Of a stretch of 64,000 nucleotides of DNA, positions 5,984 through 64,000 are shown in pieces. The notes under the pieces are model-generated. The model saw only the letters and a program-made list of their open reading frames with translations. It was not told where the DNA came from and did no database searches. The position numbers and the translations under genes were made by a program. Source of the stretch: a candidate division WWE3 bacterium (lineage in GTDB: Bacteria; Patescibacteriota; WWE3; UBA101185; UBA10185); contig WJKK01000001.1 in the NCBI GenBank assembly GCA_014729135.1, positions 794,919 to 858,918 on the forward strand. Direction: 5' to 3'. Each line of letters starts with the position of its first letter. Position 1 is the stretch's first letter.

Positions 5984-5992
5984 GTTTAATCC

Positions 5993-40658: not shown

Positions 40659-43600
40659 TCAACGGACAACAGCAGAGCCACCCATACCATTCCCGCGAAC
40701 ATCCGGTGAATGTGACTCAAAAGCCTGAGCCGGGCGCAAACGATACTCCCCCGGAACAGAAGCCTTTACCAAGTACACATATTCATAAACTCCCGCCGGT
40801 AAATAATCCAACAACAAACGCATAGAGTCCGGATACATCTCAAATCCCGAAGCATAAAAAGGAAAACCCTTGGAAGCCCCTTCCGAAACTGAATCCCTAA
40901 ACTCAGAAGGCCCAAGCCGAGACTCATTTTCTAAAGTATCATTAACCCCCTCCAAACCGGCTGGGAAATAATCCTCAACCACAACATGCCTGCGCAAATT
41001 GGGGACAGCCAAAGTTAACCGAACTGCATACGACTCCCCCACTTCAAAATTTAGGGGCGAAACCTTGTTACCCTGCAAATCAAAATATTCGCGAACAATT
41101 CCAATGCCCTCAGAATCTGCAACAATTTGATCAAAAGGCAAAATCTTATTTACAACCAAACTATAATAAGCACTTCCACCGTCAACAAGTTTAATTTGTG
41201 CACGCTTTTCACCGGCCGAAAGGTCTGACAAAGGAATCTCACCAAAAACAGAACTCCGGCCTTCCTTAAAGTTCAACGTGCCGGACAAAATTTCCGCTTC
41301 AACAGCTTCAACAGCTTCAGCAGAATCAGCAGAATCAGCGTCCTCCCCTACCACCACCCGAACATCAGAGGGTCTAAACTTAACCCCACGAGCAAGTCCA
41401 TTTTCCAACAAAGCAGCAACTCTTAAGGCATCCGAATAATTAGCAAAATAAGAGGCTTCACCCTGCAGGAGGTGATTCACCGCCAAATCCGCTACCAACG
41501 AATCGGGATCCGTCTTGTTAAACGCCCTCAAAATCACAGCAGTTGTGCTCATGTCATTTCCGTAAAACCAAACGGCCTCCGGATAATTCCAAAAGATTCT
41601 TTGAGATGCCAAGTCCGCACTTTGCAACAGGTCTGACTTCAATTGATCAACATATTTACCCCATTTACCTCCCTGCGCCTTCATAGCAAGAATCATGTAA
41701 CCCTTGGAAACATCCTTTAACGTAGAACGCCGATTGTACAAATAAGACAAGGTGCCGCTGGTATCACGCCCTACAGAGGACAAAGCAAAGGCAATCATAG
41801 CAGCCTGATCAGGTAGGAAATGCTGAACCTCAATAAGCTTAGTATTCAGGTAGTTAGCAGCCCTTTCAACCCCAACGGAATCCACGCTAAAACCGACTTC
41901 TTGAGCCCCGGATAAAGCTACAAGCACCTGCGAAGTTACATAAGTAGAACTTTCACGACTTCTTGACGTATATCCCCATCCCCCGTCCGAAAGGCGATAA
42001 TCCTCCAATGAGTAAATTGTTTTCTCAATTTTATCAGCATAAGACTGTACAACCCCCTCATCCGAACTCTCCACCTCCTTTTTATATTTATAAATGTGCA
42101 AATTAACCAACAACTCCCCCGCTAAACTCAAACTGGTTTCACAAGGATCCTCCTCCAAAAACTCGTCCGCGATGTCCTCGGCCATAGTCAAAGGCGCTCC
42201 AAAAACAGAGGCCTTCACACTTCCAAAACGGGTGTCTGCAACATCCTCAATAGTAAAAACTTCATAAGCAACATTCTTTACATTATTTGAAAACGACTCT
42301 ACGACCTCTAATCCATAAAGATACACCTCTAAAGCCTCTCCCAAGCGATCGACAAGAACATCCCCTTCGTAAACCTCAAAAGTTATATTTACCGCCTCTA
42401 AATCATTTCTAGCGGGAACTTCCACAGGAAAGGATATCTTCTGCTCAGAACCCCCTGCTACATCAACTACGGAGGAGCTGGCGCCCGAAAAAACTAAATC
42501 AGGAGCAAGTGCCTTAACAGAATATCGTCGAGAGACTTCGGTATTATTGTGAACTACCAAACCAAGGTCAAATTTATCCGTACTGCGAACAAATCTTGGT
42601 AAAGCAGATAAAGCAAAGCTGTCCAGGCTTGCCGTAAAAGTGAAGACAGCTTGACCAAATCCGTCAGAAGTACGCGCCAGTCCAAGAAGATTCCAGCGAG
42701 TAATGCTGTCAGGCAACTCAAAATCTATCACAGCTTTACCGGAGGCATCTGTTGTCACATCCACCTCCCAATGCGCTACATCCGAAAAGTTTTCACGGGT
42801 CAAATCAATATAGTCACCCCCCGCGCCACCCTTAGCTCCGGAGCCTCCCTTGGCGCCAAGCTCCGTATTAGCATTAACACGATCCCAAGAAGCCGTTAAA
42901 GTTTGTGTAGTATTAACACCCCAAAATCTCTTTGAATAAAAGTGATTAAACGCATTCCTACGCTTAACGGGACTCATCGTAAGAAGCGCATCATCCACCA
43001 GCGCCAATGTTAGATTTGCAGCAGCAACAGGATTCCCCTCTTTATCCGTTACTGTAATTGTGGCAGTACCCGAATCCCCCGGAGCATAGCCCTCCTCCCC
43101 TGGCTCTATATCGACATTCAAAAGATGATCAGTAACATCCACGTTTAAAACCTTCACACCCATTCTAAACTCCGGCGGATTGTAAACATCAGTTCCCGGT
43201 GCAACCAACAGAGCATTAACGTAGGCATTGGGAGCATAAACATCTTTAACCAAAAGCTTCATCAGATCTGCACTGGAGTCAGGACGCGCAATCTTGTAAT
43301 CTAAAACTCCTTCAGCCTCTACCGTTAGTAAAACCAAAGGCTCTTCCAAAGTAGAAGTCGTAATTATTTCGGCAGTATCTCCTATGGAATATTCTTCTTT
43401 ATCTAAAATCAACTTTACTCTGTCATGGTTTTCGCGCTTCCAATAGCCGGAATCCCGGGAAGCCACATAAAACGTGGTATCTGCAGCAGAAACATTTCCA
43501 ACGGAATCGGTGCTTACAACTTCTATAATGTGCAAGCCTCCTCCGGAGGGCATGAAAGCATAAGAAGCATCGCCCTGATCATCCGTTGTAACCCGATCCG

Positions 43601-46600
43601 AAGTAACTAAAGTATCCTCATAACTGGTTTTGTAATAGGAGCTGCCCTCGTTATCCTTAGTCTTAACCCTGAAATACTTGCGATTGTAAACGTTAACCGT
43701 AGCCGGAATACCGGCTTTATCCTCGGCAAAGACATCCACAGTCTTAATAGCAAACTCGGACTCCTCCCCCTCCACACCAACATAGGAAAGGGGCTTAACT
43801 CCGGTGTAGTGCTCAGCCATGTGGGCTACAAATTCGGTAGTTCCCGTAAAACGCTTACCACTTTCACCGGTAACATCAGCTTCAAAAGTGTAGATTTTGC
43901 TCATGCCGGAGTCCCCCGAAGTGTTAACGCCATAACTGAAAACGCCTAAGTTGTCGGTAGTTCCGGATCCCGAGGAAACTTTCTCCTCCTCAAAACCGCG
44001 CCAAACAAGGTCATCCCCAAAATAACGCTTTGAAGAATAAAACGAGTATCCGGAAAGTCCCGAAGGATTAAACACATATTTACGCTTATATAAACGGTAA
44101 TCTAAAGGACGCCCACTTAGAGGAGCACCATAAAAGTAATTAGCCTTTGCTTGCAATGAAACGTTTTGCCCATGAATAACTTCCTTGGCAGGGCCTTGTA
44201 CAGTCACCTCAAACTCGGGAACCTTATATTCCTCCACGCGAACATCTGCTGTGTATAAAACATCCTTGGAAGAGGCTACGTTTTTAGTGAACTGAAGCTT
44301 TAAGATGTAAGCACCGGGAGTTAAATCCTCGGGAAGCTGAACCGTCCCTTTAATGGAATCAGTAACATTTTCAAAAAGATGCGTGTAAATGGGGGCATCA
44401 CTGGAGTAGCGCTTTTCCAGTTGCATGTACAAGTTTAGACCGGGAGTAGCGCTTTCAGGGGTGCCGTCCTCACCGGAGTTTACTGAGGCGTCTGAATCTG
44501 CAATGTAATCAAAAGAAGTGGGAGTGTTTCGTCGAACAAAAGCATTAAAATTAAGCTCATTTCCGGGACGATACAAAGTCTTATCCGTAACAATAAACCC
44601 TTTGTAATCCAAAGCTCCATAGGAGGCAGCCGTATAACCATATTCAGCCTCATCAAACTGGTGCGGAGCTATCCCTTCATGCCAGCTACCAAGGCTCACG
44701 CCAAATTGGTCACCCTTTTCAACCAGAACAAAGCTGTAATCCCCTATTAGAGGTTCTTTTTGCCACCAAACTCCATCGGAGTTAGTTACTCCGGTTTTCA
44801 CTGGCTCTAAAAGATTCTTATCATGCGTAATTCCTAAAGAACGGCACATTTCGGGATCTTTAAACACTTTAACCGTATTGCCTTCCCTAACATCTCTGTT
44901 GTCAAGACTTGCAGCCCATACAAAAAAGCCGTCCTGATAGTCTTTCACGGTAACTGCTGTGTTTGTAACTGCAAAAACAAATCCGGTGTAATCTTTTCCG
45001 TCGTTAGCTAAAACGTCCAAATAGTAAAAACCGGGATCCAAATCCTTTTTAGCATCGCGCTCAAAACTAAACAACACATCTGTAGGAACATTAAGATTCA
45101 AGTCAAGAGGAGTGTCCCAAGAACCTTCCAAAGTGATGTTTTCTTTTTCCAGCCAGGCTCGATTTATGCTGCCCAAGGAATACTGACAGGTTGTGGCCAA
45201 ACTTTGAAACTCACTTGTTGTAAGCGAATAAAGATTGTATGTAAGCTTGTCTGCATTTGTCACACGAGTAATAACACGTGTATCTAAGTTGTCCGAAAAG
45301 TTCTTAATGCGGGAGTAGCCGGTGTTCATGGTTACAGCTATCTCATAGGGCTTGGTTGTAAATTCAAATGTGTGAGTTGCTCCAATGGCGCGGCCATAGC
45401 GATCCGGCGTGCCGGCAGGAATGGTTAAACGATACGTTGTGGAAGGTTTTAAATAACGGTTTAAAACAAAGGTCTTCCCACGAGAACGCGTGTAGCCCAA
45501 CGCCTCGACAGAACCGGGAGAGTCTCCGGTGAGGGCCGTTAGAGATAGGTGCTTTTCCAAAGTCTCACCATCCATGGGAGAATTGAAGTTTAAGTTTAAG
45601 TTGTCCTGATAACTAATTTCCTGACCGTCTTTAAACTTTCCTTGCCCTTTTGGCAGTGAGATGCTGTTAAACCCGGGAGCATCTGCCGTCTCAAAAGTGT
45701 AAGCGTATTCCGTGGGAGCAGGCGCATTTCCGCCATAACCTAAAAACCCTGAATTAACACGCGCGGAATATTCCGTTAAAGGCTTCAAGGTGCCAACCGG
45801 ATAGAAGTCGACTTTTTGCTGCCACTGCTCTTCCCAATCGTTGTAGTAGTAAGACTTGTTGTCTGCAGAGGTACGGTTAGAAAAGACAGCACGATAAGGA
45901 ACAGCCTCTTTTGTAGCCTTCTCCGTAAAAGTAAAGTTATCTAAAAGACTTTGCCGATCTATAGCCTGATTAAAATAAAAAGTAATAGGGCCTTGCGGGT
46001 TTATGTCACTAGGTTTTGAAGCACCTCCGGAGACGCCTCCTAAATCACCTTCTGCATACAAAACGGCCGGGACAAAGTTGGTGAATTCAAATGAGTAGCC
46101 CTTCTTAAGAACTCCTCCGTCTAAAGATTTCAGGTCTTGGTTTAACGAAACTGTGTATTTCATGCCCTTTTCAAGATTTTCGGGCTCTATTAGATAGGCA
46201 GCACTACCTACCCATTTTCCGGTACCTTCTATTTCGGGGGATATCGTTATGAAGGAGGCTATTTCATCGTTGTAGTAGTTTGCGGAGGTGGTGAGGTCTA
46301 TCTTGGGAGTGGCTCCGGAGGCATCAGGCCGTTGCATAGACTTTGAAAACATTAGCACAATTTTTTCTGCAGGCTCCTGTGTATTTCCGGTAGGAGATGC
46401 AAAAGCTACTTGCGGGTGAGCTATGGTTGTAAAAGCGGAGGTGTAGTCCTTTGCAAGTCCTCTTGAGTTTTTTGCACGCGCTTCTTTGGTTAGACGCACA
46501 GTTACTAAAGTGCTTCTACTTAAAGACTCGTTTGGCGTAAATGTAAGTGTAGAGGGGCTATCCCAGGAGATTGTTCCGGCAACTTCTTTAGAGTGAGTCT

Positions 46601-47111
46601 TTTGTGGGGGCATGTTTTGAGGAGAATCGGTAGGCGCAAGGTCCTTAAGATCATTAAGCGCAGCGTCTAAACCGTTTAAAGTGGGATTAGTGCTTTGAAT
46701 AGAATTTTCAACAGGAGCCGGTTGCTGAAGCACAGTTAAAGCTTGTTCAACACTTGCCTTCGCCATTTCCTCCGAGAAGGAAAGGGTTATTGAAGGTTTA
46801 AGTGAAACCTCCTCATCGCCTGCTGCTGGAGAAATTGAAACCACCTGAGGGCACTGCAAATAATTATCAAAGACGTAAATACCCGCTCTGAGAACCAAAA
46901 ATGGAAGAAGTATCAATCCAAAGATCAGACTACTTTTTTTAGGGTTTTGGCGAATGTACTTGAAAAAGGACAGTATCTTTGGAAATAGTTTCTCCGTGAG
47001 AATTAATGAAATTTGCTTCCAAAGTGAAAGTACCCTCTTGCGGATCCCATAAAAAGTGGGTTGAATCGTTTTTTGAATCTTCTTTGTAAAGCTTTCCCAG
47101 GTACTGTTCAT
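40659..47111 (-). CDS. bacterial alpha-2-macroglobulin-family protein (YfhM-like), about 2150 aa, N-terminally membrane-anchored
   Basis: The size, the N-terminal signal anchor, the many Ig-like/MG-like repeats and the position immediately downstream of a PBP1c gene all match the conserved A2M-PbpC pair. No canonical CxEQ thioester motif was seen. The annotated start overlaps the pbpC 3' end by 173 nt, so the true start may lie downstream. Confidence 0.75.
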   Translation of the reverse strand: MNSTWESFTKKIQKTIQPTFYGIRKRVLSLWKQISLILTEKLFPKILSFFKYIRQNPKKSSLIFGLILLPFLVLRAGIYVFDNYLQCPQVVSISPAAGDEEVSLKPSITLSFSEEMAKASVEQALTVLQQPAPVENSIQSTNPTLNGLDAALNDLKDLAPTDSPQNMPPQKTHSKEVAGTISWDSPSTLTFTPNESLSRSTLVTVRLTKEARAKNSRGLAKDYTSAFTTIAHPQVAFASPTGNTQEPAEKIVLMFSKSMQRPDASGATPKIDLTTSANYYNDEIASFITISPEIEGTGKWVGSAAYLIEPENLEKGMKYTVSLNQDLKSLDGGVLKKGYSFEFTNFVPAVLYAEGDLGGVSGGASKPSDINPQGPITFYFNQAIDRQSLLDNFTFTEKATKEAVPYRAVFSNRTSADNKSYYYNDWEEQWQQKVDFYPVGTLKPLTEYSARVNSGFLGYGGNAPAPTEYAYTFETADAPGFNSISLPKGQGKFKDGQEISYQDNLNLNFNSPMDGETLEKHLSLTALTGDSPGSVEALGYTRSRGKTFVLNRYLKPSTTYRLTIPAGTPDRYGRAIGATHTFEFTTKPYEIAVTMNTGYSRIKNFSDNLDTRVITRVTNADKLTYNLYSLTTSEFQSLATTCQYSLGSINRAWLEKENITLEGSWDTPLDLNLNVPTDVLFSFERDAKKDLDPGFYYLDVLANDGKDYTGFVFAVTNTAVTVKDYQDGFFVWAASLDNRDVREGNTVKVFKDPEMCRSLGITHDKNLLEPVKTGVTNSDGVWWQKEPLIGDYSFVLVEKGDQFGVSLGSWHEGIAPHQFDEAEYGYTAASYGALDYKGFIVTDKTLYRPGNELNFNAFVRRNTPTSFDYIADSDASVNSGEDGTPESATPGLNLYMQLEKRYSSDAPIYTHLFENVTDSIKGTVQLPEDLTPGAYILKLQFTKNVASSKDVLYTADVRVEEYKVPEFEVTVQGPAKEVIHGQNVSLQAKANYFYGAPLSGRPLDYRLYKRKYVFNPSGLSGYSFYSSKRYFGDDLVWRGFEEEKVSSGSGTTDNLGVFSYGVNTSGDSGMSKIYTFEADVTGESGKRFTGTTEFVAHMAEHYTGVKPLSYVGVEGEESEFAIKTVDVFAEDKAGIPATVNVYNRKYFRVKTKDNEGSSYYKTSYEDTLVTSDRVTTDDQGDASYAFMPSGGGLHIIEVVSTDSVGNVSAADTTFYVASRDSGYWKRENHDRVKLILDKEEYSIGDTAEIITTSTLEEPLVLLTVEAEGVLDYKIARPDSSADLMKLLVKDVYAPNAYVNALLVAPGTDVYNPPEFRMGVKVLNVDVTDHLLNVDIEPGEEGYAPGDSGTATITVTDKEGNPVAAANLTLALVDDALLTMSPVKRRNAFNHFYSKRFWGVNTTQTLTASWDRVNANTELGAKGGSGAKGGAGGDYIDLTRENFSDVAHWEVDVTTDASGKAVIDFELPDSITRWNLLGLARTSDGFGQAVFTFTASLDSFALSALPRFVRSTDKFDLGLVVHNNTEVSRRYSVKALAPDLVFSGASSSVVDVAGGSEQKISFPVEVPARNDLEAVNITFEVYEGDVLVDRLGEALEVYLYGLEVVESFSNNVKNVAYEVFTIEDVADTRFGSVKASVFGAPLTMAEDIADEFLEEDPCETSLSLAGELLVNLHIYKYKKEVESSDEGVVQSYADKIEKTIYSLEDYRLSDGGWGYTSRSRESSTYVTSQVLVALSGAQEVGFSVDSVGVERAANYLNTKLIEVQHFLPDQAAMIAFALSSVGRDTSGTLSYLYNRRSTLKDVSKGYMILAMKAQGGKWGKYVDQLKSDLLQSADLASQRIFWNYPEAVWFYGNDMSTTAVILRAFNKTDPDSLVADLAVNHLLQGEASYFANYSDALRVAALLENGLARGVKFRPSDVRVVVGEDADSADSAEAVEAVEAEILSGTLNFKEGRSSVFGEIPLSDLSAGEKRAQIKLVDGGSAYYSLVVNKILPFDQIVADSEGIGIVREYFDLQGNKVSPLNFEVGESYAVRLTLAVPNLRRHVVVEDYFPAGLEGVNDTLENESRLGPSEFRDSVSEGASKGFPFYASGFEMYPDSMRLLLDYLPAGVYEYVYLVKASVPGEYRLRPAQAFESHSPDVRGNGMGGSAVVR

Positions 47112-49377
47112 TAAGTATGAATTCTACAGCAACAATGGAGTGGTTTCCAGAGAAATCCGGTTTTAGAGGGGGTTTTTCTTCCGGAAATCCCGACGTTTCG
47201 GTAGCGCCCCATTGAACTTCAAACTCCAGTTTTTCATAGGTCTCCTCCCCCGGAATTAAATAGTAGGTGCTGTTTTGAGGAGGGTTTGTTATGGCGGGCT
47301 TGTTTTGCTCCCCCTCACTGAGAGAAATGTCTTCCGGTTCTTGCTTTTGTGCTAATCTTTCCGAAGGAGGCTCCTCCCGATCCGAGTTAGAGGCGTATTC
47401 AGAATTAGAAAAGAGGGGCTTGTTTAAATGATCATAAGTAGTCAACATGACCTCCCTCCAAATTGGACCGGCACCTGTAACACCATCTATACGGGACATT
47501 GGCGCATTGTCCGTATTTCCAACCCACACACCCACCGCAAAGTCTTCAGGATAATCCTTTGTATAGCCTAAAGTCCAATTGTCATGCCAATCTGTTGTAG
47601 TGCCTGTTTTAGAAGCTGCGTTAAATGGAAGAACCAGAACGTTATTACGCCCAAAACCAAGCACTTTAGCAGAGGGGTTACTTAGGATGCTAAAGAGGGT
47701 GTTACTGACTTCAGTGGAGCGGTTACCCCAAACGGGAGTACCTTTGTCATACTTGGCCATAGACTCCGAGGAGGTACCGGGGCGCTCATAAAGAATGCTA
47801 CTTCCATCTGCAGCTAAAACCTTGCGTACAAAATAAGGCTTCTTATAATAACCGTCTCTACCTAAAGAAGCATACGCATTAGTTAGATTTAGCAGGGTTA
47901 CCTCTCCCCCACCTAAAGTTACACTTAAGCCATAACGCTCCGGGTGGTTTAAGTTGTGAAGGCCAAGTCGCTGAGCAGCTCCTACCATGTCGGCAACACC
48001 TACCATGTCCAATACTTTAACTGCGGGGAGATTTAGAGAGCTTGCTAAAGCTGTGTGCACGGGAACCTCTCCATTGAAAACACCATTATAATTGTGCGGT
48101 ACAAAGCTCTTGCCTTCCTTGTCCACAAAAACGGTTTTCTCATCTAAAATGGTGCCTTCGGGATCCAAAACACCTTCATAAAAGGCCTGACCATAGGTAA
48201 TGGGCTTTAAGGCTGAACCGGGCTGTCGCAAGGAGGTTGCAACGTTTACGGAACCATCAATCTCTTCGTCAAAATAATCAATGCTACCCACCATTGTAAG
48301 AATGGCGCTATCTTTGTTGCGTAAAATTACAACGGAAGAGTTAGAAAGCTTATGTTTGTCCCCTACGGATTTTACTTTGTAATAAGCCTGTTCCCAGGCG
48401 TTGTGAGCTAAAAAAGGATCAAGCGTTGTGTAAATTCGCAGACCCTCCTGTTGAGTGTCAGCCAGAAGGGAATCAGTTTCTGCAAGAGCATATTCTATAA
48501 AGTGCATCTTATTTCTTAAATCCTCTGAAGTTTTAACAAAGACTCCCAAAGGTAACTGCTGAAGTGTCTCAAGGTCTTCTGCAGAAAGATCCTGCTCTTT
48601 AGCCAACAAACTCAACACATGGTTACGACGTTCCTTTGCAGCCTCCGGTGAGGAAATGGGATCATAAACTTCCGGAGAGCTAATCATTCCGGCGAGCAAA
48701 GAAGCCTCCAGTGTAGAAAGATCGGAAGCGCTTTTATTAAAGTAATACTGCGAAGCTGCCTCTACTCCATAGCGCATGTTGCCCAAATAAACAGAGTTCA
48801 AATAGTACTCCAAGATTGCCTCTTTTGTATGGAAAAGCTCTAGGAACAGGGCGGAGTTTGCTTCGCGGATTTTGCGGAGGTACTTGTTGGCGGAGGGGTG
48901 GAAGAGGGAATCTTTGGCAACCTGCTGCGTAATAGTGCTACCTCCCGAAACGATATGGCCGACGGATATATTGGATTGAAGGGCACGAATTATTGCAATG
49001 GGATCAATGCCAAAGTGGGAATAAAAGCGTTTGTCTTCTAGTGTGATAACGGCATTTTTGAGCTTTTCCGAAATTTCAGTGGATTTTATGGGCGATTGGT
49101 AGCCTTCTGAATTTAGGATGGATTCGTAAATTAGGTTATCGTTGATGTCGTAGACCTTTACGGAGGGGTTGTATTTGCCAAAGTTTCTTAGTGTGAGAAG
49201 GCCGTCTAGAAGGAGTGTTAGTGTGAGGATTATTAGTAGTGTTGTGATTATTGGGAGTGTTGAAAATGGTCGGAAGGGTGTTTGCGGTATTGAGGTGATT
49301 TTTTTAAGGAGTGTTTGGAGGCTGTTTTTGAGGGTTTTTATGTAGGAGCCCGGCAGCTTCAGGTTCTTTAAGTGCAT
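46939..49377 (-). CDS. pbpC: penicillin-binding protein 1C (bifunctional GT51 transglycosylase/transpeptidase)
   Basis: GT51 motifs EDKRFYSHFGID and GGSTITQQVAK; transpeptidase motifs SALK (SxxK), SLN and KTGT. Confidence 0.85.
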   Translation of the reverse strand: MHLKNLKLPGSYIKTLKNSLQTLLKKITSIPQTPFRPFSTLPIITTLLIILTLTLLLDGLLTLRNFGKYNPSVKVYDINDNLIYESILNSEGYQSPIKSTEISEKLKNAVITLEDKRFYSHFGIDPIAIIRALQSNISVGHIVSGGSTITQQVAKDSLFHPSANKYLRKIREANSALFLELFHTKEAILEYYLNSVYLGNMRYGVEAASQYYFNKSASDLSTLEASLLAGMISSPEVYDPISSPEAAKERRNHVLSLLAKEQDLSAEDLETLQQLPLGVFVKTSEDLRNKMHFIEYALAETDSLLADTQQEGLRIYTTLDPFLAHNAWEQAYYKVKSVGDKHKLSNSSVVILRNKDSAILTMVGSIDYFDEEIDGSVNVATSLRQPGSALKPITYGQAFYEGVLDPEGTILDEKTVFVDKEGKSFVPHNYNGVFNGEVPVHTALASSLNLPAVKVLDMVGVADMVGAAQRLGLHNLNHPERYGLSVTLGGGEVTLLNLTNAYASLGRDGYYKKPYFVRKVLAADGSSILYERPGTSSESMAKYDKGTPVWGNRSTEVSNTLFSILSNPSAKVLGFGRNNVLVLPFNAASKTGTTTDWHDNWTLGYTKDYPEDFAVGVWVGNTDNAPMSRIDGVTGAGPIWREVMLTTYDHLNKPLFSNSEYASNSDREEPPSERLAQKQEPEDISLSEGEQNKPAITNPPQNSTYYLIPGEETYEKLEFEVQWGATETSGFPEEKPPLKPDFSGNHSIVAVEFILNEQYLGKLYKEDSKNDSTHFLWDPQEGTFTLEANFINSHGETISKDTVLFQVHSPKP

Positions 49378-53349: not shown

Positions 53350-56060
<2,711 letters not shown>

Positions 56061-56064
<4 letters not shown>

Positions 56065-57629
56065 ATATTTATACCCAATAACTCCTTAATAGTTTCTTGC
56101 TCCTTCATAACAGCTGCTAACAAAGCATTAAAATCCTCACTTGTATTTACCAAATTATCTAAATAGCGTCTGAAATCTGCATCTTCTTTATACAAGGTTT
56201 TCATTTTCTTACCCAGGAATTTTAGACTTTGAATTTGTTTTGGCGTTATTAAACCTCCCCAAATCATTGTAAACAAGAGGTATTGAACATGGAGAGGGTA
56301 AATCTGGCGAGGAGGTTGCCTGAAAAAGGCTGTCACTTTTTCTCCGGTTTCTAAGCTGGTTCTAATTCCCTCACTTAGCTCCGCACCAAAGTGAACAAAT
56401 CTCTTGTGCTTTCTAAGAAGATTTAAAAATCCGGAAAGTTCTCTGTTAAGACTCTGGTGTAACTTTGACTGCACTTGGCGCCCCACACGTGTAACAGATA
56501 AGAAAGCATCTACTGCAGGACGGTTACCTTCATCAAAAAGAGCAGAGTCAAAGAAGACATGGCCGTCAGTCATTGACATTAAGTTGGTCTGGATATAACC
56601 GGAAATATCGCCTTCGACAGTTTCTGCCACAGGAAGACATGTTATGGAACTGGTACCGTTTTCATTCTTAAAGTTACCTGCTCGCTCAAATAACTGTGAA
56701 TGAATGAAGAATATATCCCCGGGATAAGACTCTCTACCAGGAAAACTACCTCCAACCAGCGACAATTCGCGATAATACTTGGCATGTGAGGACATATCAT
56801 CTAATATAAGTACAACGTCACGCCCCTGATTTCTAAAATACTCTGCAAAAGCCATGGCCGTATAGGGTGTCAAATATACTTCTCCCGCAGAATCTGAGGA
56901 GGAAGTTCCTACTAGCATGAACTTATCGCCTAAATTATGCTGTCTACTAAAATCCAAAACATCTAAAAGAGCCCCCTTGTTCTTACCTATGCCGGCGTAT
57001 ATGCAAATAGAGCCTTCACTAACCTGAGAAAGAATCACCTGCATTAAAAACTCGGTTTTTCCGGACTTTTTATCCCCTAATATAAGCTCCCGCTGTCCTT
57101 TACCCAAAGGAACCATAAGATCAACAATGGAAACGCCCGTTACTAACGGATCAGAAACTTTGGCGCGAGAGGGAAAGTCAGGAGCGTCGTTAAAAACTTC
57201 CATTAAGGTGGTTTCATTGGAATCACCGGAGATAGCGGACAAACCAACGGATCCGGGAGAAGACTGAAAAACACCAGCCACAGAGGCAGAATTAGCAGCG
57301 GAGCCTTCTGAAGAATCCATCAAGCTTTTTCCTAAGCAGTCATAGGCACCCCCTAGTAATTTTTCATGGGCTGCTATCTTTAAAGATTGCTTTGTTCTAG
57401 CAAGCTTATCGCCTACTTTAAAACCCACCTCATCCAGCAGCAAAACATGAGCAATATCCTCATCCAATGTCATGACTATTCCCAGATTTTCATCCTCAAA
57501 CACGACAACTTCACCTAGAAACACATTAGGCAAACCGGAGACTCCTACTAAAGGGAAATTCAGTGTCTCAACAAATCCTACTTCTTTGTTTTCTTCTAAA
57601 TAGTGCTTAAAACTTTTCCCAAGATACAT
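56061..57629 (-). CDS. atpA: F-type ATP synthase alpha subunit
   Basis: GDKKSGKTEFLMQVI Walker A, ILDDMSSHAKYYRELSL and PGREAYPGD-like PGRESYPGDIFFIHSQLFERA. Confidence 0.9.
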
Positions 57630-57637
57630 ATGTCGTA

Positions 57638-58132
57638 CTAATTCTCTCCTGCTAATGAAGTAACTCCGGCCGTCAAAGCCGTCTTTCCATTCTTAAAATA
57701 ATCATTTAATTTGGTACGCAAGGATAGGTCAAAGTAAGAACCTTTAAGATACAAAATGACACCGCCTAAAAGAGATTTGTCATACTCCCGGACAAGCACA
57801 AAAGGCTCTTTAACAACTTTTTCTTTTAAAAAAGCAAAGACCTGCACCCAAAAATCGGTGCTCATACCATTTAAAGCAACTTTTACACGAACCTCCTCTA
57901 ACTCTGAAAGACTTTTTCTAATTTCTTTTAAAGCTTTCTCAATAGCGGAAGCACTAGAAATGTCCACTCCATTAGCTTCTAAAAACTTGCGTAATTTTTG
58001 CAAATTGGTCTTACCTGTAGGCCAAACGAACTTGTTATCAGAATAAAGGGTTGACTGCAAGGAGCGGATTGTCTTTATTAGCTCAGACATGTCAGTGTTA
58101 AATTTTATTAGTTCGTTTACATCCATTGTCAT
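57638..58132 (-). CDS. atpH: F-type ATP synthase delta subunit (OSCP-like)
   Basis: 164 aa; C-terminal SLLGGVILYLKGSYFDLSL matches the delta SLIGGVVIRVGD...D.S pattern; position in the operon. Confidence 0.6.
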   Translation of the reverse strand: MTMDVNELIKFNTDMSELIKTIRSLQSTLYSDNKFVWPTGKTNLQKLRKFLEANGVDISSASAIEKALKEIRKSLSELEEVRVKVALNGMSTDFWVQVFAFLKEKVVKEPFVLVREYDKSLLGGVILYLKGSYFDLSLRTKLNDYFKNGKTALTAGVTSLAGEN

Positions 58133-58175
58133 ATTAAACTCTTAGCGGAAGAGGCGTGGGATTTGCTTCCCCTGA

Positions 58176-58904
58176 CTAGCTCTCAAAAACCTCATTCCTT
58201 TTAGCCTCCTCCAAAACCTTCAAAACATAGTCCTCATGATCCTTCAAACTCAAACTCTTCCCAATAATCGCCTTAGCAGCACTCTGCACCACACGCTCCA
58301 CCGAATCCCCTATTCTCTCCTTTTGCGCTGCCTTATACCGCGTCAACTCAGTCTGCATGTCCTCACGGGATTCTCTCAACGCCACCTCCAAGCTCTTCCT
58401 AAAAGCCTGCAGCTCATTAGCCATCTCATCCTTAAACTCTTGGGACACACCCTTCATAGCCTCCAAGTTTTCCTTAGACGCCTCCAATAAAGCCTTGCGA
58501 TTAACCTTTAGCAGATTCTCCGAGGATTCGCTAAGAAACTCCTGACTCTCCTCTGAAAACTCCTCAACCTGCTCATCCAAAGCTTCTGTCATATCTTGTC
58601 CTAACACATTTGCATCCGACAAAATCTTGCCGGCGCGCTTATTTGCCTCCTCTACAATCTCAAAGGCCTGTCGCTTAGCCTCATCCAGCGTCTCAGAAGC
58701 CTCCTCAAACTCCTCCTCCTTACACTCCTCCAGAGAAGACGCCTTAGATAAAAGGTTGATGAAAAAGGAACTTAAAGCGAAAAACAAAACAAAAAGTAAA
58801 ACAAATGACAAAATTGCCAAAGGAATAAGATATTCAGCTGATGGATAAGGCGGAAAGTTAATTCGGAAAGCTTGACCTATTGTTTCTAAAATGGGCAGAT
58901 TCAT
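58176..58904 (-). CDS. atpF: F-type ATP synthase b subunit (single N-terminal TM helix plus a long coiled coil)
   Basis: Architecture and position in the operon; the sequence is low-complexity and E/K-rich. Confidence 0.5.
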   Translation of the reverse strand: MNLPILETIGQAFRINFPPYPSAEYLIPLAILSFVLLFVLFFALSSFFINLLSKASSLEECKEEEFEEASETLDEAKRQAFEIVEEANKRAGKILSDANVLGQDMTEALDEQVEEFSEESQEFLSESSENLLKVNRKALLEASKENLEAMKGVSQEFKDEMANELQAFRKSLEVALRESREDMQTELTRYKAAQKERIGDSVERVVQSAAKAIIGKSLSLKDHEDYVLKVLEEAKRNEVFES

Positions 58905-58958
58905 TTTTATAAAGACCTTTCTTTAGTTATTTTTTATCTCCGGTTAGTTATAAATTAG

Positions 58959-59879
<921 letters not shown>

Positions 59880-61067
59880 TCAAAGGATTTGTTGTTTTTG
59901 GAGGTGTTTTTAAGTGCTTAATTTAATGCATACCTTTAGGAAAGATTCGGAAAACTTTTTGGGATAATGTTTTACTCAGGTTACTCGTGAGAATTTTTAA
60001 AGGAGTTTTGGAGTACGCTTTTAGGATAACTACAAAAGCCAGAAGGAGCGTTAGCAGGCGAAACCACGGAATGACAAATGGAGCGATCAAAATAAGCACA
60101 AGAGATGAAAAAGGGTGTAAATTTTTGATAAATCGCTAATTTGCAAATTATAACAACCTAAATAGCAAAGATCAAGGAAAAGCACGTGTTTCCTCTGGCT
60201 TTAAAGCCGTCCAAACAGAGGGTGCAAACTTTGTTATACACCCCTGTGGAGGGGAATAAAAAGGTTTATCAGACACAACACAAAGAGTGCCAGGTAAGAA
60301 GGCAATTTTTACTCATTTTACTCAAAACCATTCCATAGAGGTTGAAAAGTAGCGGGAATAGGGGTACATGTGTTGAGTCATTAGGAGAACTCAAAACAGC
60401 TCTCCTCCGATAAGTTTTTGAGGAAAATCGACAACATCTAGATCAATATCATCTAGCAACTTTTTAAGAAAAAAGATGAGAGCTGATTTAGGTTTGAGAA
60501 AATTACTTTGATTTTCCTAAAACACACCGCGCACAAAACAACGCAATTGCACACAAAGCTCTCTTTGGAAATTTTTGAGCAATTTCGTAACTTTTAGACC
60601 AGTCCAGTAGAGGCTTACCCTTTTCTAAAATCAACGGCATATTACTTAAAAAGACAAATTCCAGAAGAGCCTCCACTTTATATAGGATGAAATTGAACAA
60701 GTAAGGAGCTTTTTTCGATATAGAAATAAAAATTTCTCCGCAAGGGTGCCTAATTAAACAAATGCGCATTATTTTTTATTTCAAAAAATCAAATTTTTGA
60801 AACGGCGCCAAAGTAAAGAAAAATTTAGTTTTCAGAAAAAAGAAATTTTTAGGACTCCCCTACTCTGCAAAAGAAATCATCTTAAATTGAGTAGACAGTT
60901 GACTCAAAAAACCTCTCGACTGACTCTAGAAATTCTAAACGAAAAAAATCAGCTTAGTATTGGAGGCTGAGGTTTAGAAACTCCCAAAGTATCAATTTAA
61001 AAGTATTGTATGTCAAAATGGAGTGAAAAAACCGCTTAAAACGAATTCTAGAGCCTCGCTTGAAAAA

Positions 61068-61127
61068 GGGACAGGCTTCTAAGGGGACAGTCCTTTGAAA
61101 GGACTGTCCTCTCCGAGGACAGTCCCC
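61068..61127. repeat. REP palindrome array (4 copies), intergenic
   Basis: gggacaggc ttctaag gggacagtcc tttgaaa ggactgtcc tctccga ggacagtcccc. Confidence 0.85.
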
Positions 61128-61292
61128 TATAGTAAGCGAGCCCCTCTAGTAACTGTGGAAAAGTTGTTGACTTAAGCACTTGCATGGGATACTATTTATA
61201 TAACCTTGTTATTTGGCTCTATAAAGGTTTGTGACAAGGCTTTGAAAAACAATGACGACCAACAAAATGCCGGTTTAAAGAAAGAAAGAAAC

Positions 61293-64000
61293 ATGCCCGA
61301 TTCTGCCCAAGATAAAAACTACAAACAAAAAAACAGCTCAAAAACACCCCATAAGAAATATAATCTTAACGTTTCAAAAGCAGCAAAGCTTTTGGGAGTT
61401 TCCGCCTCCACGCTCCGCCGCTATGCAAAGGAAGGCAAAATCACCTCTCAGCGAGCAGAAAATGGCTACCGAAAGTTCTCAAAAACCGATGTTTTAGAGC
61501 TGAAGGATCGCTTGGCAGAGGAAGAGCGCCAAAAGGAGTTGGCCAAACAACAAAAGATGGAAAGAAATCCCAAAGCGATATCCGCACCGAAAAGCTCCTC
61601 GTTGTCGACGAGAAATGCAAGTCCTTCGGGCATTACACATCAACGTTACAACTCCGAATCCCGAATCAAGTCCAGAATGACAGGTACAAAAACAAAGGCA
61701 AAAACGAAAATTATCAAGCCCCGCAAAAAACAAAAGGAAGCAAACAAACTCCCACCGGCAGCTAAAAAAAGAATTCGACAAACAACAAATGCAACTGCCC
61801 TTGCAGGCATAACAAAGGGCATGTCGGCAGGAATCACCGCTTCAGCTATGGCCTTAACCGCAACCCTGGGCCTAACGCTGGCAACTTCCATTGCACCTAA
61901 AACCGCCAGACTCCAAGCAATGACAAAGGCTGAAGATATTACGGAAGTGGGCTTGGAGCATTTGGCTAGCGTTTATATTGAGAAAGTGAACCCACAGATA
62001 GAAAAGGTGGAAAAGGGATTGGCTGCCCTGACTCCAAACTATAACGAAGAGGATTCCGCTTCCGGATCGGTGTCCAGAACGACGGGAGCAGGCGAAGTGA
62101 CAAAAAGCACACTACTCTCCCGCTTAACAGGCAACAAAGAAAACCAACAAGGAATACTAGCCTCCAAACTCTCACCTGAACTTGCAGCTAAAATCCCCGC
62201 AGAATTTTCCTCCAAACTTGCACAAGCCCCCAAAATTCTAGGGCGAAGAACAACCCGACCCGACTTTGCCCTAGAACTCAACGTTCCCACCACAGTTCGA
62301 AACGACCTCACCGTAGAAGGAGCCATCACCGCTCAAACCTTATCCGTGCTTGCTGGCGGTCTATCAACTGAGAACCAGGGTATTGACACTGGAACAGGTG
62401 CTCTGACAGCGGGCTCCTTAACCTTTACAGCAGGAAGCACGGGCAGCCTCAACAACCTACTAACAATTGACGATCAAACTCAAACCACTCTAGAAGAAAC
62501 ATTAGAACTTGACGGCGATTTAGAAGGGACACTTGACGAGACAACAATAGCAACTCTTGGTGGAGCAGATGTAGGCGACATAGACTCCGGAGAACTTTTA
62601 ATATTAGACGGTGATGAAATCACATCCGGTGAAATAACTGACTTAGACACAACAGCAATTACAGAACTAGGCACAATCTCAACCGGAACCTGGACAGCAA
62701 CAGAAATAGGACCAACTTACGGAGGCACAGGACTCACAACATACACAACAGGCGACCTCCTCTACTCCTCCGCCTCAAACACGCTCGCAGCTCTCAACAT
62801 AGGCACAGAAGGCTACGTTCTCACTTCGACATCCGGAGTGCCAGCATGGACCGACATAGCCTCCGCCACAAACGCAGTTATTGGCAACCGCATTTACACC
62901 GAAAACAACTACGTCACGGACAGCCAAACAGTGACAGCCTCCATAGAAGCCTTGGACACCTCCATTTACGCCACATTTGGAAACCGCACCTACACCGAAG
63001 ACAACTTTGTAACCGATGCAGAAAGCATAACCTCCTCCATCGACGCACTTGACCAAGCAGTCTACTCCAACGCCTCCGGAGAAACAGGCCTCTGGAGAGT
63101 TTCAGACTCCGGAACATACATTTACCCAAACAACTTCTCCACCCTAGCAGTAACCGACTCCGGAAGACTTGGCATTGGCACCACCTCCCCCGACGCAGAG
63201 TTGCACGTTGAAGGCAGCGTTGTTCTGGGAGGCGATTCCAACGACACTATCACCTTTACAGGAGGAGTGACAACAGGCGGGTCACTTACTCCCGCCATAA
63301 ACCTAGGAGCAGACCTGGGGTCAGAAGACAAACGCTTCAACAACATCTACGTAGAAAACATCAACAACAACTCCCAATTAGAACAAGGCGGACAGGCAAT
63401 TTTCTCCTACGTTCCCGGAACCGCAGAAGGAAGCGACGAAACCAGCTGGACAGAGTCCACTGTTAGAATCAACCCAACAACTGCCCCAACCGACTCCTGG
63501 CTCTTTGGACTTGGTGTAGCCGGAAGCGAAGTAGCCGGAATCTACCATGACGGTGACTCATATTTTGAAGGCAGCATGGGAATCGGCCGTACTTCCCCAT
63601 CCGCAAAACTACATATAGAAGGAACCACCGAGCAACTACGTTTAGGCTATGACAGCAGCAACTACACCAGTTTTACTATAGGCAGCGACGGCGAACTGAC
63701 AATCGCAGACAGCGGAACAGACGTAGCCGTACTAGGCGCAACCCAAGCCAAATTCAGCGTACCAACCACATTCGACTCCGCGGGGGACGTGTCAATTGCA
63801 AACGACCTCGTCTTTACAAACCAAACCAGCGCCAACATTCAGTCCTATGGTCCTTTATATATAGAAGCGGGCGAAAATTTTGAAAACAACGATCTGACGC
63901 TAAAAACCTACGGCACAGGCAACGTCGCCATGGACCTTTCCGGCACGGGCTACCTGCACTTAATGGCTACGGACCCCGCAATTGTTTTTGACACGGCAAC
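61293..64000 (+). CDS. giant membrane/surface protein, 5' partial (over 900 aa in the window): N-terminal MerR/Xis-like HTH, Lys-rich linker, one TM helix, then Thr/Gly-rich repeats with phage-tail-fibre-like IGTTSP...LHVEG motifs
   Basis: Translated by hand in the frame of the ATG at 61293, with no stop codon through 64000. HTH: NVSKAAKLLGVSASTLRRYAKEGKITSQRAENGYRKFSKTDVLEL. TM: GMSAGITASAMALTATLGLTLATSIA. Repeats: LGIGTTSPDAELHVEGS and MGIGRTSPSAKLHIEGT. A TTGACT-N17-TACTAT promoter-like sequence lies about 120 nt upstream. Not in the supplied track because the ORF runs off the window edge. Confidence 0.6.
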   Translation, partial: MPDSAQDKNYKQKNSSKTPHKKYNLNVSKAAKLLGVSASTLRRYAKEGKITSQRAENGYRKFSKTDVLELKDRLAEEERQKELAKQQKMERNPKAISAPKSSSLSTRNASPSGITHQRYNSESRIKSRMTGTKTKAKTKIIKPRKKQKEANKLPPAAKKRIRQTTNATALAGITKGMSAGITASAMALTATLGLTLATSIAPKTARLQAMTKAEDITEVGLEHLASVYIEKVNPQIEKVEKGLAALTPNYNEEDSASGSVSRTTGAGEVTKSTLLSRLTGNKENQQGILASKLSPELAAKIPAEFSSKLAQAPKILGRRTTRPDFALELNVPTTVRNDLTVEGAITAQTLSVLAGGLSTENQGIDTGTGALTAGSLTFTAGSTGSLNNLLTIDDQTQTTLEETLELDGDLEGTLDETTIATLGGADVGDIDSGELLILDGDEITSGEITDLDTTAITELGTISTGTWTATEIGPTYGGTGLTTYTTGDLLYSSASNTLAALNIGTEGYVLTSTSGVPAWTDIASATNAVIGNRIYTENNYVTDSQTVTASIEALDTSIYATFGNRTYTEDNFVTDAESITSSIDALDQAVYSNASGETGLWRVSDSGTYIYPNNFSTLAVTDSGRLGIGTTSPDAELHVEGSVVLGGDSNDTITFTGGVTTGGSLTPAINLGADLGSEDKRFNNIYVENINNNSQLEQGGQAIFSYVPGTAEGSDETSWTESTVRINPTTAPTDSWLFGLGVAGSEVAGIYHDGDSYFEGSMGIGRTSPSAKLHIEGTTEQLRLGYDSSNYTSFTIGSDGELTIADSGTDVAVLGATQAKFSVPTTFDSAGDVSIANDLVFTNQTSANIQSYGPLYIEAGENFENNDLTLKTYGTGNVAMDLSGTGYLHLMATDPAIVFDTA

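Follow-up and report, generated by a model that had tools for sequence, protein, structure and literature searches.

A chromosomal gene at the end of the 64,000-nucleotide stretch of DNA that we analysed (hereafter the window) encodes a protein in which a MerR-type helix-turn-helix (HTH), a transmembrane (TM) anchor, and a giant fibre with a Peptidase_S74 domain follow one another in a single chain. This HTH-TM-fibre architecture is well supported and is a new combination of known parts, without the canonical effector domain of MerR proteins. Our preferred reading, which we consider rather probable, is that of a single-pass WWE3 protein with its N terminus inside and its C terminus outside, which displays an adhesive, probably trimeric fibre on the outside and keeps DNA-holding HTH tails on the inside, where it would serve as a regulator or as a tether.

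One reading frame and its family

The part of the gene that lies in the window (61293..64000, forward strand) is an open reading frame of 902 codons with zero stops, which continues past the window end and represents 41% of the 2,187 codons counted from the ATG at 61293. The nearest in-frame stop upstream is at 61173, and this ATG, from which residues are numbered below unless NCBI numbering is stated, is the first ATG. The NCBI record MBD3366536.1, derived from an 864,248-bp contig of candidate division WWE3, a group of tiny symbionts among the Patescibacteria/CPR, starts 17 codons earlier at a TTG (61242..61244, forward strand), which adds the 17 residues MKNNDDQQNAGLKKERN. The 902 residues are contained exactly in this record, at an offset of 17, within a full product of 2204 aa that carries the NCBI/PGAP name "MerR family DNA-binding transcriptional regulator." Beyond 64000, the gene is known from the NCBI protein sequence alone; the domain order in NCBI numbering is HTH (44-79), TM (~186-218), and S74 (1881-1929). 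A sequence-only reading of the window had described an HTH, a TM helix, and repeats uninterrupted by a stop and had proposed retrieving the rest of the gene as a check. The single 902-codon frame agrees with this description, and the database protein turned out to be the same fused product.

A consensus scan upstream of the gene gave a sole promoter-like site, TTGACT-17 nt-TACTAT (61167..61195, forward strand), which matches at 9 of 12 positions and is not evidence of function. Rfam returned nothing credible over 59000-62000, and no other copies of the HTH or of the fibre were found within the window in a paralogue search.

Since the N-terminal 215 aa, used as the sole query of a word-indexed homology search, gave no matches, homologues were collected by an exhaustive profile search. 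The layout of HTH, TM helix, and giant ectodomain recurred in 105 of the 151 top representatives of clusters formed at 50% identity, and one orthologue with the same layout is 41% identical over aa 27-901, which marks the fusion as genuine and ancient. Members carry one or two HTHs and then a TM helix; the tandem form, present in 61 of the 105, fits a DNA half-site logic. Lengths reach 7,185 aa, and the ectodomains are varied and heterogeneous (S74 fibre, Kelch, ConA-like lectin, GDSL lipase), which argues for a generic anchor module over a dedicated sensor. Two paralogues lie on one contig in at least three cases, the WWE3 source genome included. Of 13 long members looked up, two carry a taxon label, and both of these are CPR. 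Full-text literature searches found no description of this architecture, and a family whose (HTH)1-2 and TM module bears such different giant ectodomains is apparently undescribed.

The HTH, the linker, and the membrane anchor

Pfam, AF2, and Foldseek identify a MerR-superfamily winged HTH at aa 24-63, predicted to be cytoplasmic, with a C-terminal helix at aa 64-90 (together 61362..61562, forward strand). For Pfam MerR (PF00376), aa 27-62 score 45.9 bits, with the cut-off at 28.2 (E 4.8e-12), MerR_1 (PF13411) reaches 36.1 bits against a cut-off of 21.6, and HTH_17 is likewise above its cut-off. Sequence matches of the HTH in the PDB were CueR, BldC, and RacA. When aa 1-110 were modelled with AF2, pLDDT exceeded 90 over ~aa 25-85, where the topology is beta-alpha-alpha-beta-beta-alpha, and dropped to 67-68 past ~aa 90. 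Foldseek neighbours of the model were RacA (5i44; rmsd 1.6 A, 38% identity), NmlR (5d90), BldC (6amk; TM score 0.82), and Xis (4j2n), and the nearest structural neighbours are all DNA-bound proteins. The Pfam and PDB matches and the modelled fold thus uphold the earlier suggestion that the first 60 aa form a MerR/excisionase HTH.

Three residues (S37, R43, and R60) do not vary among 29 family members, and five more (A30, T40, L41, R42, and R54) reach at least 90% conservation, with conservation lost immediately C-terminal to the HTH. No C-terminal domain for binding an effector (metal, drug, or redox) was found in Pfam or NCBIfam scans; the MerR_1 match ends at profile position 47 of 69, and the first wing is followed, where canonical MerR regulators have a second wing (alpha3-alpha4) and a long antiparallel coiled-coil helix for dimerisation, by the one helix at aa 64-90, which is rich in E, K, R, and Q and in which AF2 confidence falls past ~aa 85. 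NCBIfam equivalog scores of the HTH are far under their cut-offs (19.8 bits against 170 for the RacA equivalog). Like RacA of Bacillus and BldC of Streptomyces, the protein has a winged HTH of minimal, MerR-like build that lacks an effector domain. RacA, which recognises GC-rich ram sites, ties DNA to the envelope indirectly, via a coiled coil and DivIVA, whereas the protein described here is predicted to be an integral membrane protein. BldC is small and soluble, and neither it nor RacA is integral to the membrane or displayed on the surface. That the HTH binds DNA, and what such binding would bring about, we infer.

The helix leads into a basic, low-complexity linker of ~75 aa (aa 91-165; 61563..61787, forward strand) that is predicted to be flexible. 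Lysine makes up 19% of aa 76-165, and aa 73-165 contain 27 K+R against 7 D+E, as expected from the Lys-rich linker noted earlier. Across the family, the linker is 17-317 aa long and not conserved in sequence. Because it is long and probably disordered, conformational signalling from the ectodomain to the HTH is implausible, so a signal, if any, would need clustering or proteolysis.

A single hydrophobic anchor follows (aa 169-201; 61797..61895, forward strand), with a predicted type II (N-in/C-out) orientation. Its Kyte-Doolittle (KD) maximum of 1.47 over 19 residues is marginal against the usual threshold of 1.6, and the Hessa scale, summed by hand, gives ~+2 kcal/mol. The segment aligns with unambiguous TM helices of homologues (KD 1.7-3.0), and in most of the family the helix is long and strongly hydrophobic (KD 2.3-3.0); the one TM helix proposed from the sequence therefore holds as a single stretch, weak in this protein and strong in its aligned homologues. 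There is no N-terminal signal peptide in the protein, and net charge is +20 at aa 73-165 against -65 at aa 331-902. In the family, K+R average 3.68 before the TM helix and 2.30 after it, with more before in 72 members and fewer in 11. The missing signal peptide, the charge asymmetry, and the positive-inside bias of the family place the HTH, by prediction, on the cytoplasmic side.

The S74-type ectodomain and its relatives

After the TM helix, the ectodomain runs for ~700 aa in the window and ~2,000 in the full protein. The sequence-only reading had called it Thr/Gly/Ser-rich, which its composition supports (T 15%, G 12%, and S 9% at aa 341-902), and had put it at 800 aa or more, which is too long for the part in the window. 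Residues 331-902 are acidic (13 K+R against 78 D+E). All modules given here are on the forward strand. A poorly conserved juxtamembrane spacer of mixed charge (aa 204-330; 61902..62282) leads to a conserved stalk base, LELNVP...VTF...ITA..L...GG..TE....GTG.LT (62271..62642), common to family members; in the profile search, a single matched stretch extends from the HTH to this stalk base in dozens of proteins. Next come a ~66-aa module, LGTIxTGxW..YGGTG..GDLLY..G.VL...G.P.W (62658..62855), and two 30-aa repeats, GNRxYTExNxVTDxxxxTxSIxALDxxxY (62880..63065), predicted to be helical in a low-confidence model. The YGGTG module occurs very frequently among other fibre-like proteins, in many cases in tandem or at the C terminus, with ~140 segments at peak coverage. 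W148, G158, G159, and T160 are invariant in its alignment (A3), and the A3 profile found no relative in the PDB (best match E 0.45). Alignments of the ectodomain were made per module (A3, A5), and a global MAFFT alignment (A2) was discarded for its misplaced fragments.

Two motifs correspond to the capping loop of MAT and S74 fibres, V-G-G/N-pi-x-x-P-x-x-x-L (PMC10769870): LGIGTTSPDAELHV (aa 626-639; 63168..63209), at which PDB 8ojn aligns, and MGIGRTSPSAKLHI (aa 762-775; 63576..63617), which opens a TTEQLRLGYD...FENNDLTL module reaching the window end. With two copies in the window and 12 in the full protein, the GIGTTSP-type motif is repeated, as had been noticed from the sequence; in S74-type fibres, such repeated motifs sit on a beta-helical stalk. 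The profile of the GIGTT module (A5) matches two MAT fibres of Bdellovibrio, Bd2133 8ond (E 2.3e-4) and 8ojn (E 5.1e-4), and the full protein matches PHROG tail-fibre families (E ~3e-22). Beyond the window, Peptidase_S74 (PF13884) matches aa 1881-1929 in NCBI numbering (29.2 bits against a cut-off of 22). This match begins at profile position 1 on Ser1881, where SSLRYK stands in place of SDxxxK, so that the dyad retains its Ser and Lys while a Ser takes the place of Asp; ~270 residues lie C-terminal to the Pfam match, or 324 counted from the catalytic Ser. The S74, PHROG, and 8ond/8ojn matches bear out the kinship with tail fibres and chaperones of the endosialidase type that had been recognised in the window. 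A monomer AF2 model of aa 320-600 was poor (pLDDT 60, pTM 0.23); such failure would be expected of an intertwined oligomer and lends weak support to one.

The closest parallels to the fibre are MAT proteins of Bdellovibrio bacteriovorus and phage S74 fibres (T5 pb1, K1F endosialidase), which are also long, Thr/Gly-rich modular mosaics with repeated capping loops (phi-G-I-G-T-T-x-P-x-x-x-L) and a self-cleaving S74 domain near the C terminus. MAT fibres are surface-displayed, trimeric, and prey-binding (PMC10769870), and, as here, the organism that makes them lives on other cells. The proximal end of MAT proteins consists of a signal peptide and an N-terminal beta-rich domain that is conserved and ~130 aa long (PMC10769870), in contrast to the HTH, linker, and TM helix of the present protein, in which, unlike in MAT and phage S74 fibres, ~270 further residues follow the Pfam S74 match. 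Similarity to phage fibres was not detectable by tblastn (aa 440-902 against 50,697 GenBank phage records, no match).

To our knowledge, the animal protein MyRF is the one well-known protein that, as here, combines a membrane-tethered DNA-binding domain and a phage-derived S74 chaperone in one chain; it trimerises through S74. MyRF is also named as a capping-loop match in PMC10769870. It has an Ndt80-type DNA-binding domain in the order DNA-binding domain-S74-TM, so cleavage frees the DNA-binding domain, whereas the MerR-type protein has the order DNA-binding domain-TM-fibre-S74, so an S74 cut would be made on the outer side of the cell and would leave the HTH tethered.

ToxR, CadC, TcpP, and the class of transmembrane transcription regulators surveyed by Demey et al. 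2023 (PMC10269533) likewise join an N-terminal DNA-binding domain in the cytoplasm, by one TM helix, to a C-terminal domain beyond the membrane. The combination that defines this class, a DNA-binding domain and a TM segment in one polypeptide, is present here, with a TM segment that is weak in this protein and strong in its homologues. As far as the main text and supplementary text of PMC10269533 go, MerR, MerR_1, and HTH_17 are minor DNA-binding domains of such regulators, MerR-type domains accounting for ~1.8% of 50,302 of them (supplement), and Patescibacteria are absent. ToxR and CadC have OmpR-type winged helices and small periplasmic sensors, in contrast to the ~2,000-aa fibre of this protein or the other giant adhesins and enzymes of the family.

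Neighbourhood, mechanism, and meaning

In one lineage, the gene lies beside the F-type ATP synthase (atp) operon, both in the window and at L003, L004, L005, L007, and L009, and AtpD is only 43-55% identical among these loci, a deep divergence. In some lineages the gene is divergent from atp, in others it lies downstream and co-directional, so the synteny is no proof of a shared promoter region. The window gene is flanked by housekeeping genes (L11, L1, and the atp operon), and its surroundings are free of phage structural genes; at L001 and L009, the same conserved block includes MreB and a PEGA-domain gene, and a sortase gene adjoins the homologue at L009.

The promoter-like site is preceded, ~40 bp upstream, by three to four 9-bp palindromes, GGACWGTCC, arrayed at an exact spacing of 16 bp (61069..61125). 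The window contains 14 exact copies, all in the 16-bp register. Because such hairpins occur at four further places in the window and flank a Y1_Tnp gene (34591-35178; IS200-like, RAYT-type), the array is probably a REP-like dispersed element. As an operator of the HTH it is disfavoured by this dispersal, by the neighbouring Y1 transposase, and by its absence from all nine related loci. No shared operator or repeat was found upstream of five homologous genes, only unrelated local palindromes. An example, at L003, reads GCAAGTTTTGG-T-CCAAAACTTGC.

Under our preferred reading, the sequence itself points to the hydrophobic segment as a signal anchor, with the C-terminal part exported, and the S74 domain has its catalytic Ser and Lys in SSLRYK at residue 1881 (NCBI numbering). 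The steps that follow are inferred. In the way known from S74 fibres of phages and Bdellovibrio, the S74 domain would drive trimerisation and would then cleave itself off, taking the last 324 residues along and leaving a membrane-anchored trimeric fibre that may bind the surface of a partner or host cell. Trimerisation would also set three HTH tails side by side beneath the membrane. By binding chromosomal DNA there, they would make the protein a transmembrane DNA-binding protein, either a ToxR-style membrane regulator or a RacA-like tether of the chromosome to the envelope.

A bolder version, which we regard as unlikely, holds that in CPR bacteria a single protein leads from host contact to the chromosome: binding or clustering of the trimeric fibre on a host cell bundles its MerR-type tails, which then seize specific DNA beside the ATP synthase operon. 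If true, this seizure would switch energy metabolism and fibre production, or else these membrane-protein genes would be pulled to the membrane, where their transcription, translation, and insertion would be coupled; (HTH)1-2-TM would then be a general signalling and anchoring device of giant episymbiont surface proteins.

Other explanations take the N-terminal part differently. It might be a very long leader, HTH, linker, and TM segment together, from which signal peptidase frees the fibre by cutting between LATSIA and PK; intramembrane proteolysis of the stub would release a soluble HTH that reports the amount of exported fibre to the chromosome, as feedback on an expensive gene. Membrane-tethered regulators are usually activated through regulated proteolysis, the hydrophobic segment is less hydrophobic than a true TM helix and has A-x-A-like residues at its end, P0004, P0046, and P0065 show comparable small-residue motifs after the TM (by eye), and there is the sortase gene at L009. 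Small residues after a TM are, however, common by chance, the helices of most members are by their KD values typical anchors and not cleavable signals, and the C terminus of the product has no LPXTG-type sorting signal; we find this release rather improbable. The HTH could also be a protein-interaction or positioning module that docks the fibre to MreB or to the ATP synthase stalk, in the manner of RodZ, which shares the order of HTH, single TM helix, and extracytoplasmic domain as well as type II topology. The MreB and PEGA-domain gene of the conserved block and the persistent atp adjacency are in line with such docking. RodZ, with which the protein showed no sequence relation, combines a small periplasmic domain with an MreB-binding HTH of XRE type, whereas the HTH here is MerR-type, its invariant residues are the Arg, Thr, and Ser of the recognition helix and wing, its closest folds are all DNA complexes, the tandem duplication seen in the family is typical of DNA half-site recognition, and the linker is strongly basic. 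Docking thus appears quite improbable to us.

We give almost no credence to an ordinary cytoplasmic MerR-family transcription factor, which the public annotation implies. The NCBI name and the Pfam MerR matches speak for it, but MerR accounts for only ~50 of the 2,204 residues, the MerR_1 match stops short in its profile, an effector-binding domain is lacking, a second wing is not apparent, and ~90% of the protein is predicted to be an exported fibre with an S74 domain. MerR-activated promoters typically have a spacer of 19-20 nt, not the 17 nt of the promoter-like site. Just as hard to credit is an artefact, in which a small HTH gene was joined to a fibre gene by a frameshift, as the sequence-only reading had considered, or by misassembly, or in which a prophage tail fibre sits next to an excisionase. 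The HTH_17/excisionase-like scores and the tail-fibre-like ectodomain would fit, but the frameshift is unsupported because the same fused layout recurs in 105 of the 151 representatives (more than 100 independent clusters from many assemblies), in the 41% identical orthologue, and in the identical public product. The housekeeping flanks free of phage structural genes and the empty tblastn search of phage records also oppose a prophage origin.

A large part of bacterial diversity belongs to the Patescibacteria/CPR, whose way of life is attachment to other cells. The annotation "MerR family transcriptional regulators" hides a major class of their surface proteins and inflates counts of CPR regulators, and one lineage of this class kept its ATP synthase neighbourhood across very deep divergence. 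In one polypeptide, a probable host-binding fibre is combined with a DNA-binding domain under strong constraint. The family thereby unites two questions about CPR: how they recognise their hosts, and how they regulate themselves with so few regulators.

A single open frame and a recurrent layout

The fibre gene (61293-64000, plus strand) is a single open frame of 902 codons that continues past the end of the window, and the closest in-frame stop on its 5' side lies at 61173. Two starts have been proposed, TTG 61242 by NCBI and ATG 61293 by the sequence-only reading, and a promoter-like TTGACT-17-TACTAT (61167-61195) is found upstream of both. Using an exhaustive profile search, we recovered a 2,204-residue protein, P0117, that includes all 902 window residues exactly, from its residue 18. 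P0117 is NCBI MBD3366536.1, annotated as a "MerR family DNA-binding transcriptional regulator" on an 864,248-bp WWE3 (Patescibacteria/CPR) contig. The window therefore derives from a WWE3 genome, and the remainder of the gene is known as protein sequence.

As the sequence-only reading had observed, no stop separates the helix-turn-helix (HTH) from the transmembrane (TM) and repeat region. Its alternative, a small gene fused by a frameshift, is contradicted by the recurrence of the layout: a Patescibacteria genome (L001) carries a 41%-identical orthologue with the same order of HTH, linker, TM helix and fibre, and in 105 of the 151 best representatives of 50%-identity clusters a hydrophobic helix (Kyte-Doolittle at least 1.45) comes after a single or double HTH. 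The HTH-TM-fibre fusion is real. A metagenome contig near-identical to L001 (L002) extends the orthologue to about 1,673 aa.

A search with a profile spanning the HTH to the stalk base gave 21,607 matches at E up to 1e-3, 1,715 at 1e-10 and 39 at 1e-30, counts whose lower ranks include MerR-type HTH proteins without the TM/fibre layout, which is also lacking in 46 of the top 151. Many top matches covered the HTH through to the stalk base in a single stretch, and lengths reach 7,185 aa. Family members carry one HTH (44) or two in tandem (61), and their ectodomains range from S74 fibres (P0117, P0130 and P0137) to Kelch repeats (P0162), a ConA-like lectin (P0148) and a GDSL lipase (P0121). Paralogue pairs occur on one contig in at least three cases, among them the WWE3 genome of the window (P0117 and P0137), and taxon names are carried only by WWE3 and "Patescibacteria group" members. 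The contigs measure 0.74-1.6 Mb, a size consistent with genomes of the CPR. In the tandem-HTH member P0142, an intein splicing domain (PF14890, E 3e-15) interrupts the ectodomain at aa 838-1096. L001 also encodes, 3.5 kb away from its fibre orthologue, a separate 332-aa protein (5478-6476, minus strand) that begins with an HTH_17/MerR_1 domain, continues in an acidic linker and has no TM segment that is apparent.

From the predicted cytoplasmic HTH to the fibre-like ectodomain

The reading of the N-terminus as a MerR/excisionase-type HTH was borne out. At aa 25-72 (counted from ATG 61293), MerR, MerR_1 and HTH_17 each score above the curated Pfam cut-offs, and the nearest solved structures by sequence are CueR, BldC and RacA. 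Modelled by AF2 with 28 family sequences, the segment aa 1-110 reaches pLDDT >90 across about aa 25-85 and shows a beta-alpha-alpha-beta-beta topology followed by a single long helix (aa 64-90); Foldseek ranked RacA-DNA (rmsd 1.6 Å, 38% identity), NmlR-DNA, BldC-DNA (TM 0.82) and a mycobacteriophage Xis at the top. The MerR_1 alignment covers the profile only as far as position 47 of its 69, and the HTH is not followed by an effector domain; the N-terminal domain is therefore the minimal DNA-binding module of the MerR superfamily rather than a canonical MerR regulator. S37, R43 and R60 are the same in all 29 family members compared, A30, T40, L41, R42 and R54 reach at least 90% conservation, and conservation drops away directly C-terminal to the domain. 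The stretch that follows (aa 73-165) contains 27 Lys and Arg against 7 Asp and Glu.

The sole hydrophobic stretch in the window protein, aa 169-201, has a Kyte-Doolittle maximum of 1.47, below the usual threshold, and is therefore marginal as an anchor when taken alone. Its aligned counterparts are nevertheless clear TM helices in four family members (P0004, P0008, P0046 and P0065) and in the L001 orthologue. In the family, the 20-residue flanks of the helix average 3.68 Lys and Arg before and 2.30 after it, the preceding flank being richer in 72 members and poorer in 11. The ectodomain of the window protein is strongly acidic at aa 331-902 (13 Lys and Arg against 78 Asp and Glu). On the basis of this alignment and these charge asymmetries, we predict an N-in/C-out, type II topology.

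The ectodomain is a mosaic whose modules recur in many other proteins, and Pfam gave no match on the portion within the window. A conserved stalk base (aa 327-450) is followed by a YGGTG module of about 66 aa (aa 456-521), found in tandem or terminally in many other proteins. There are also two copies of a GNRxYTExN repeat within the window, and GIGTTxPxxxLHV motifs, of which the window holds 2 and the full protein 12. The second GIGTT module, searched as a profile, matches the Bdellovibrio MAT fibres Bd2133 (8ond, E 2.3e-4) and 8ojn (E 5.1e-4), where such motifs build the capping loops of a trimeric, intertwined beta-helix (PMC10769870). In the full protein (NCBI numbering), PHROG tail-fibre families match aa 957-1583 with E about 3e-22, and Pfam Peptidase_S74 matches aa 1881-1929, with position 1 of the profile falling on the motif SSLRYK; the Ser-Lys dyad is visible directly in the sequence, and 324 residues run from the Ser to the protein end. 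The kinship with chaperone-of-endosialidase proteins, which the sequence-only reading had recognised in the repeat motifs, was thus correct. It extends to phage fibres at the profile level only, as tblastn of aa 440-902 against GenBank phages found no match. The AF2 monomer model of aa 320-600 was poor.

The atp neighbourhood and other window features

In the window, the L11 and L1 genes (plus strand) are followed by an F-type ATP synthase operon (53350-59837, minus strand) that encodes epsilon, beta, gamma, alpha, delta and b, together with a membrane protein of 292 aa; no recognisable genes for subunits a and c were found within this operon. The AT-rich gap of 1.45 kb between the operon and the fibre gene (59838-61292) contains no ORF longer than 90 aa and gave no credible match in Rfam, and its equivalent measures about 1 kb in L005 and just 118 bp in L003. 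Gene order in L005 (WWE3 GW2011_GWF2_41_45) is identical to that of the window. The HTH-fibre gene is divergent from the atp operon in L003 and L007, as in the window, and lies immediately 3' of atpC on the same strand in L004 and L009. MreB and a PEGA gene precede the operon in L009, and L001, with the order MreB-PEGA-HTH, looks like the same block minus the atp operon. As AtpD is only 43-55% identical across the atp-adjacent loci, the neighbourhood has outlasted very deep divergence. The synteny suggests a functional link, short of proof because the orientation of the gene to atp varies among lineages. A second paralogue (L008) is in a different location.

The 292-aa protein encoded first in the operon (58959-59837, minus strand) has an N-terminal TM helix, an extracytoplasmic domain and a C-terminal two-helix hairpin. 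The hairpin resembles ATP synthase subunit c, but inspection by eye showed no acidic residue at the expected ion-binding carboxylate position. Homologues with 37-45% identity occupy the corresponding place in the operons of L003, L004, L005 and L007. The ecto-domain of the window's 292-aa protein (aa 77-190) shares 31% identity (E 1e-10) with a domain close to the C-terminal end of the fibre orthologue in L001/L002, in the place held by S74 in the window's protein; the two gene families therefore share a domain.

In L003, the 118-bp region between the divergent atp-head and HTH-fibre genes holds a candidate operator for that lineage, the perfect inverted repeat GCAAGTTTTGG-T-CCAAAACTTGC (5919-5941) with arms of 11 bp, and a -35-like box, CTTGACA, lies about 10 bp downstream of it. 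Small four-helix-bundle 23S_rRNA_IVP genes (PF05635) lie directly 3' of the HTH-fibre gene in L007 (15693-16055) and L008 (14511-14753), and about 0.9 kb upstream of it, inside the atp-side cluster, in L003 (4735-5073). In L006 (3-740) and L007 (6789-7742), the HTH-giant gene has a divergently oriented Fic-domain gene immediately upstream, which in L007 stands between it and the atp operon.

Elsewhere in the window, the 9-bp palindrome GGACWGTCC forms arrays of 2-5 copies at an exact 16-bp spacing (14139-14163, 31203-31275, 34497-34521, 35251-35275 and 61069-61125). Exact copies number 14, and allowing one mismatch raises the count to 23, where 7.5 would be expected. A 195-aa Y1_Tnp ORF (IS200-like, E 1.8e-8; 34591-35178, minus strand) is bracketed by the pairs at 34497 and 35251, each of which is a perfect hairpin, and the ensemble looks like a REP element with a RAYT-type transposase in a CPR genome. 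Two arrays are read through in frame inside long minus-strand ORFs, one DnaX-like (13437-15224, array at aa 354-362) and one encoding a 697-aa membrane protein (29680-31773, array at aa 167-191), reflecting either palindromic insertion into coding sequence or mis-set gene starts. A further giant ORF of 2,150 aa (40659-47111, minus strand) starts with a plain TM anchor and lacks an HTH; ahead of it comes an ORF of 812 aa (46939-49377, minus strand) whose N-terminus resembles a class A penicillin-binding protein.

A possible mechanism, its rivals and its relatives

Domain order, charge asymmetry, HTH conservation and the S74 dyad are read directly from the sequence, and the steps proposed here are drawn from the named families. 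The protein would be inserted by its signal anchor and then exported, and S74 would drive trimerisation and then cleave itself, on the model of K1F endosialidase, T5 pb1 and Bd3182. The product may be an adhesive, membrane-anchored fibre for contact with a partner cell, beneath which three HTH tails (six in tandem forms) on flexible basic linkers would bind DNA. We consider DNA binding by the HTH reasonably probable and are much less sure of its outcome, which may be ToxR-like regulation from the membrane or RacA-like physical tethering. The heterogeneous ectodomains and long disordered linkers argue against allosteric sensing and favour a generic anchor module, with an activity that could be governed by clustering or proteolysis.

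Among the rivals to a tethered DNA-binding fibre, cleavage behind the weak hydrophobic segment would free the HTH. A RodZ-like function would use the HTH for protein docking; against this, the closest structural neighbours of the HTH include complexes with DNA. A plain MerR regulator, as the Pfam matches alone might suggest, is very unlikely for a protein with this truncated match and this fibre, and so is an artefact, given an architecture that recurs across the family.

Known systems each match the tethered fibre in part. MAT and S74 fibres resemble its outer part, but their N-terminal anchor domain is absent here, and RacA and BldC have the closest HTH fold. MyRF is, to our knowledge, alone among well-known proteins in combining a tethered DNA-binding domain with an S74 domain, but its domain order and logic are unlike those of the window protein. 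Transmembrane transcription regulators have the same topology, and a survey catalogues MerR-type domains as a minor class among 50,302 of them (MerR 386, MerR_1 350, HTH_17 151; PMC10269533). Patescibacteria go unmentioned in the main text of that survey and in the supplementary text covered, and its main text discusses neither MerR-type members nor giant fibres. A full-text literature search found no paper describing the HTH-TM-giant-fibre architecture, which, given these partial matches, we rate as a variation on known kinds. It matters for annotation, as PGAP names giant surface proteins by their first 50 residues, and for the biology of the CPR.
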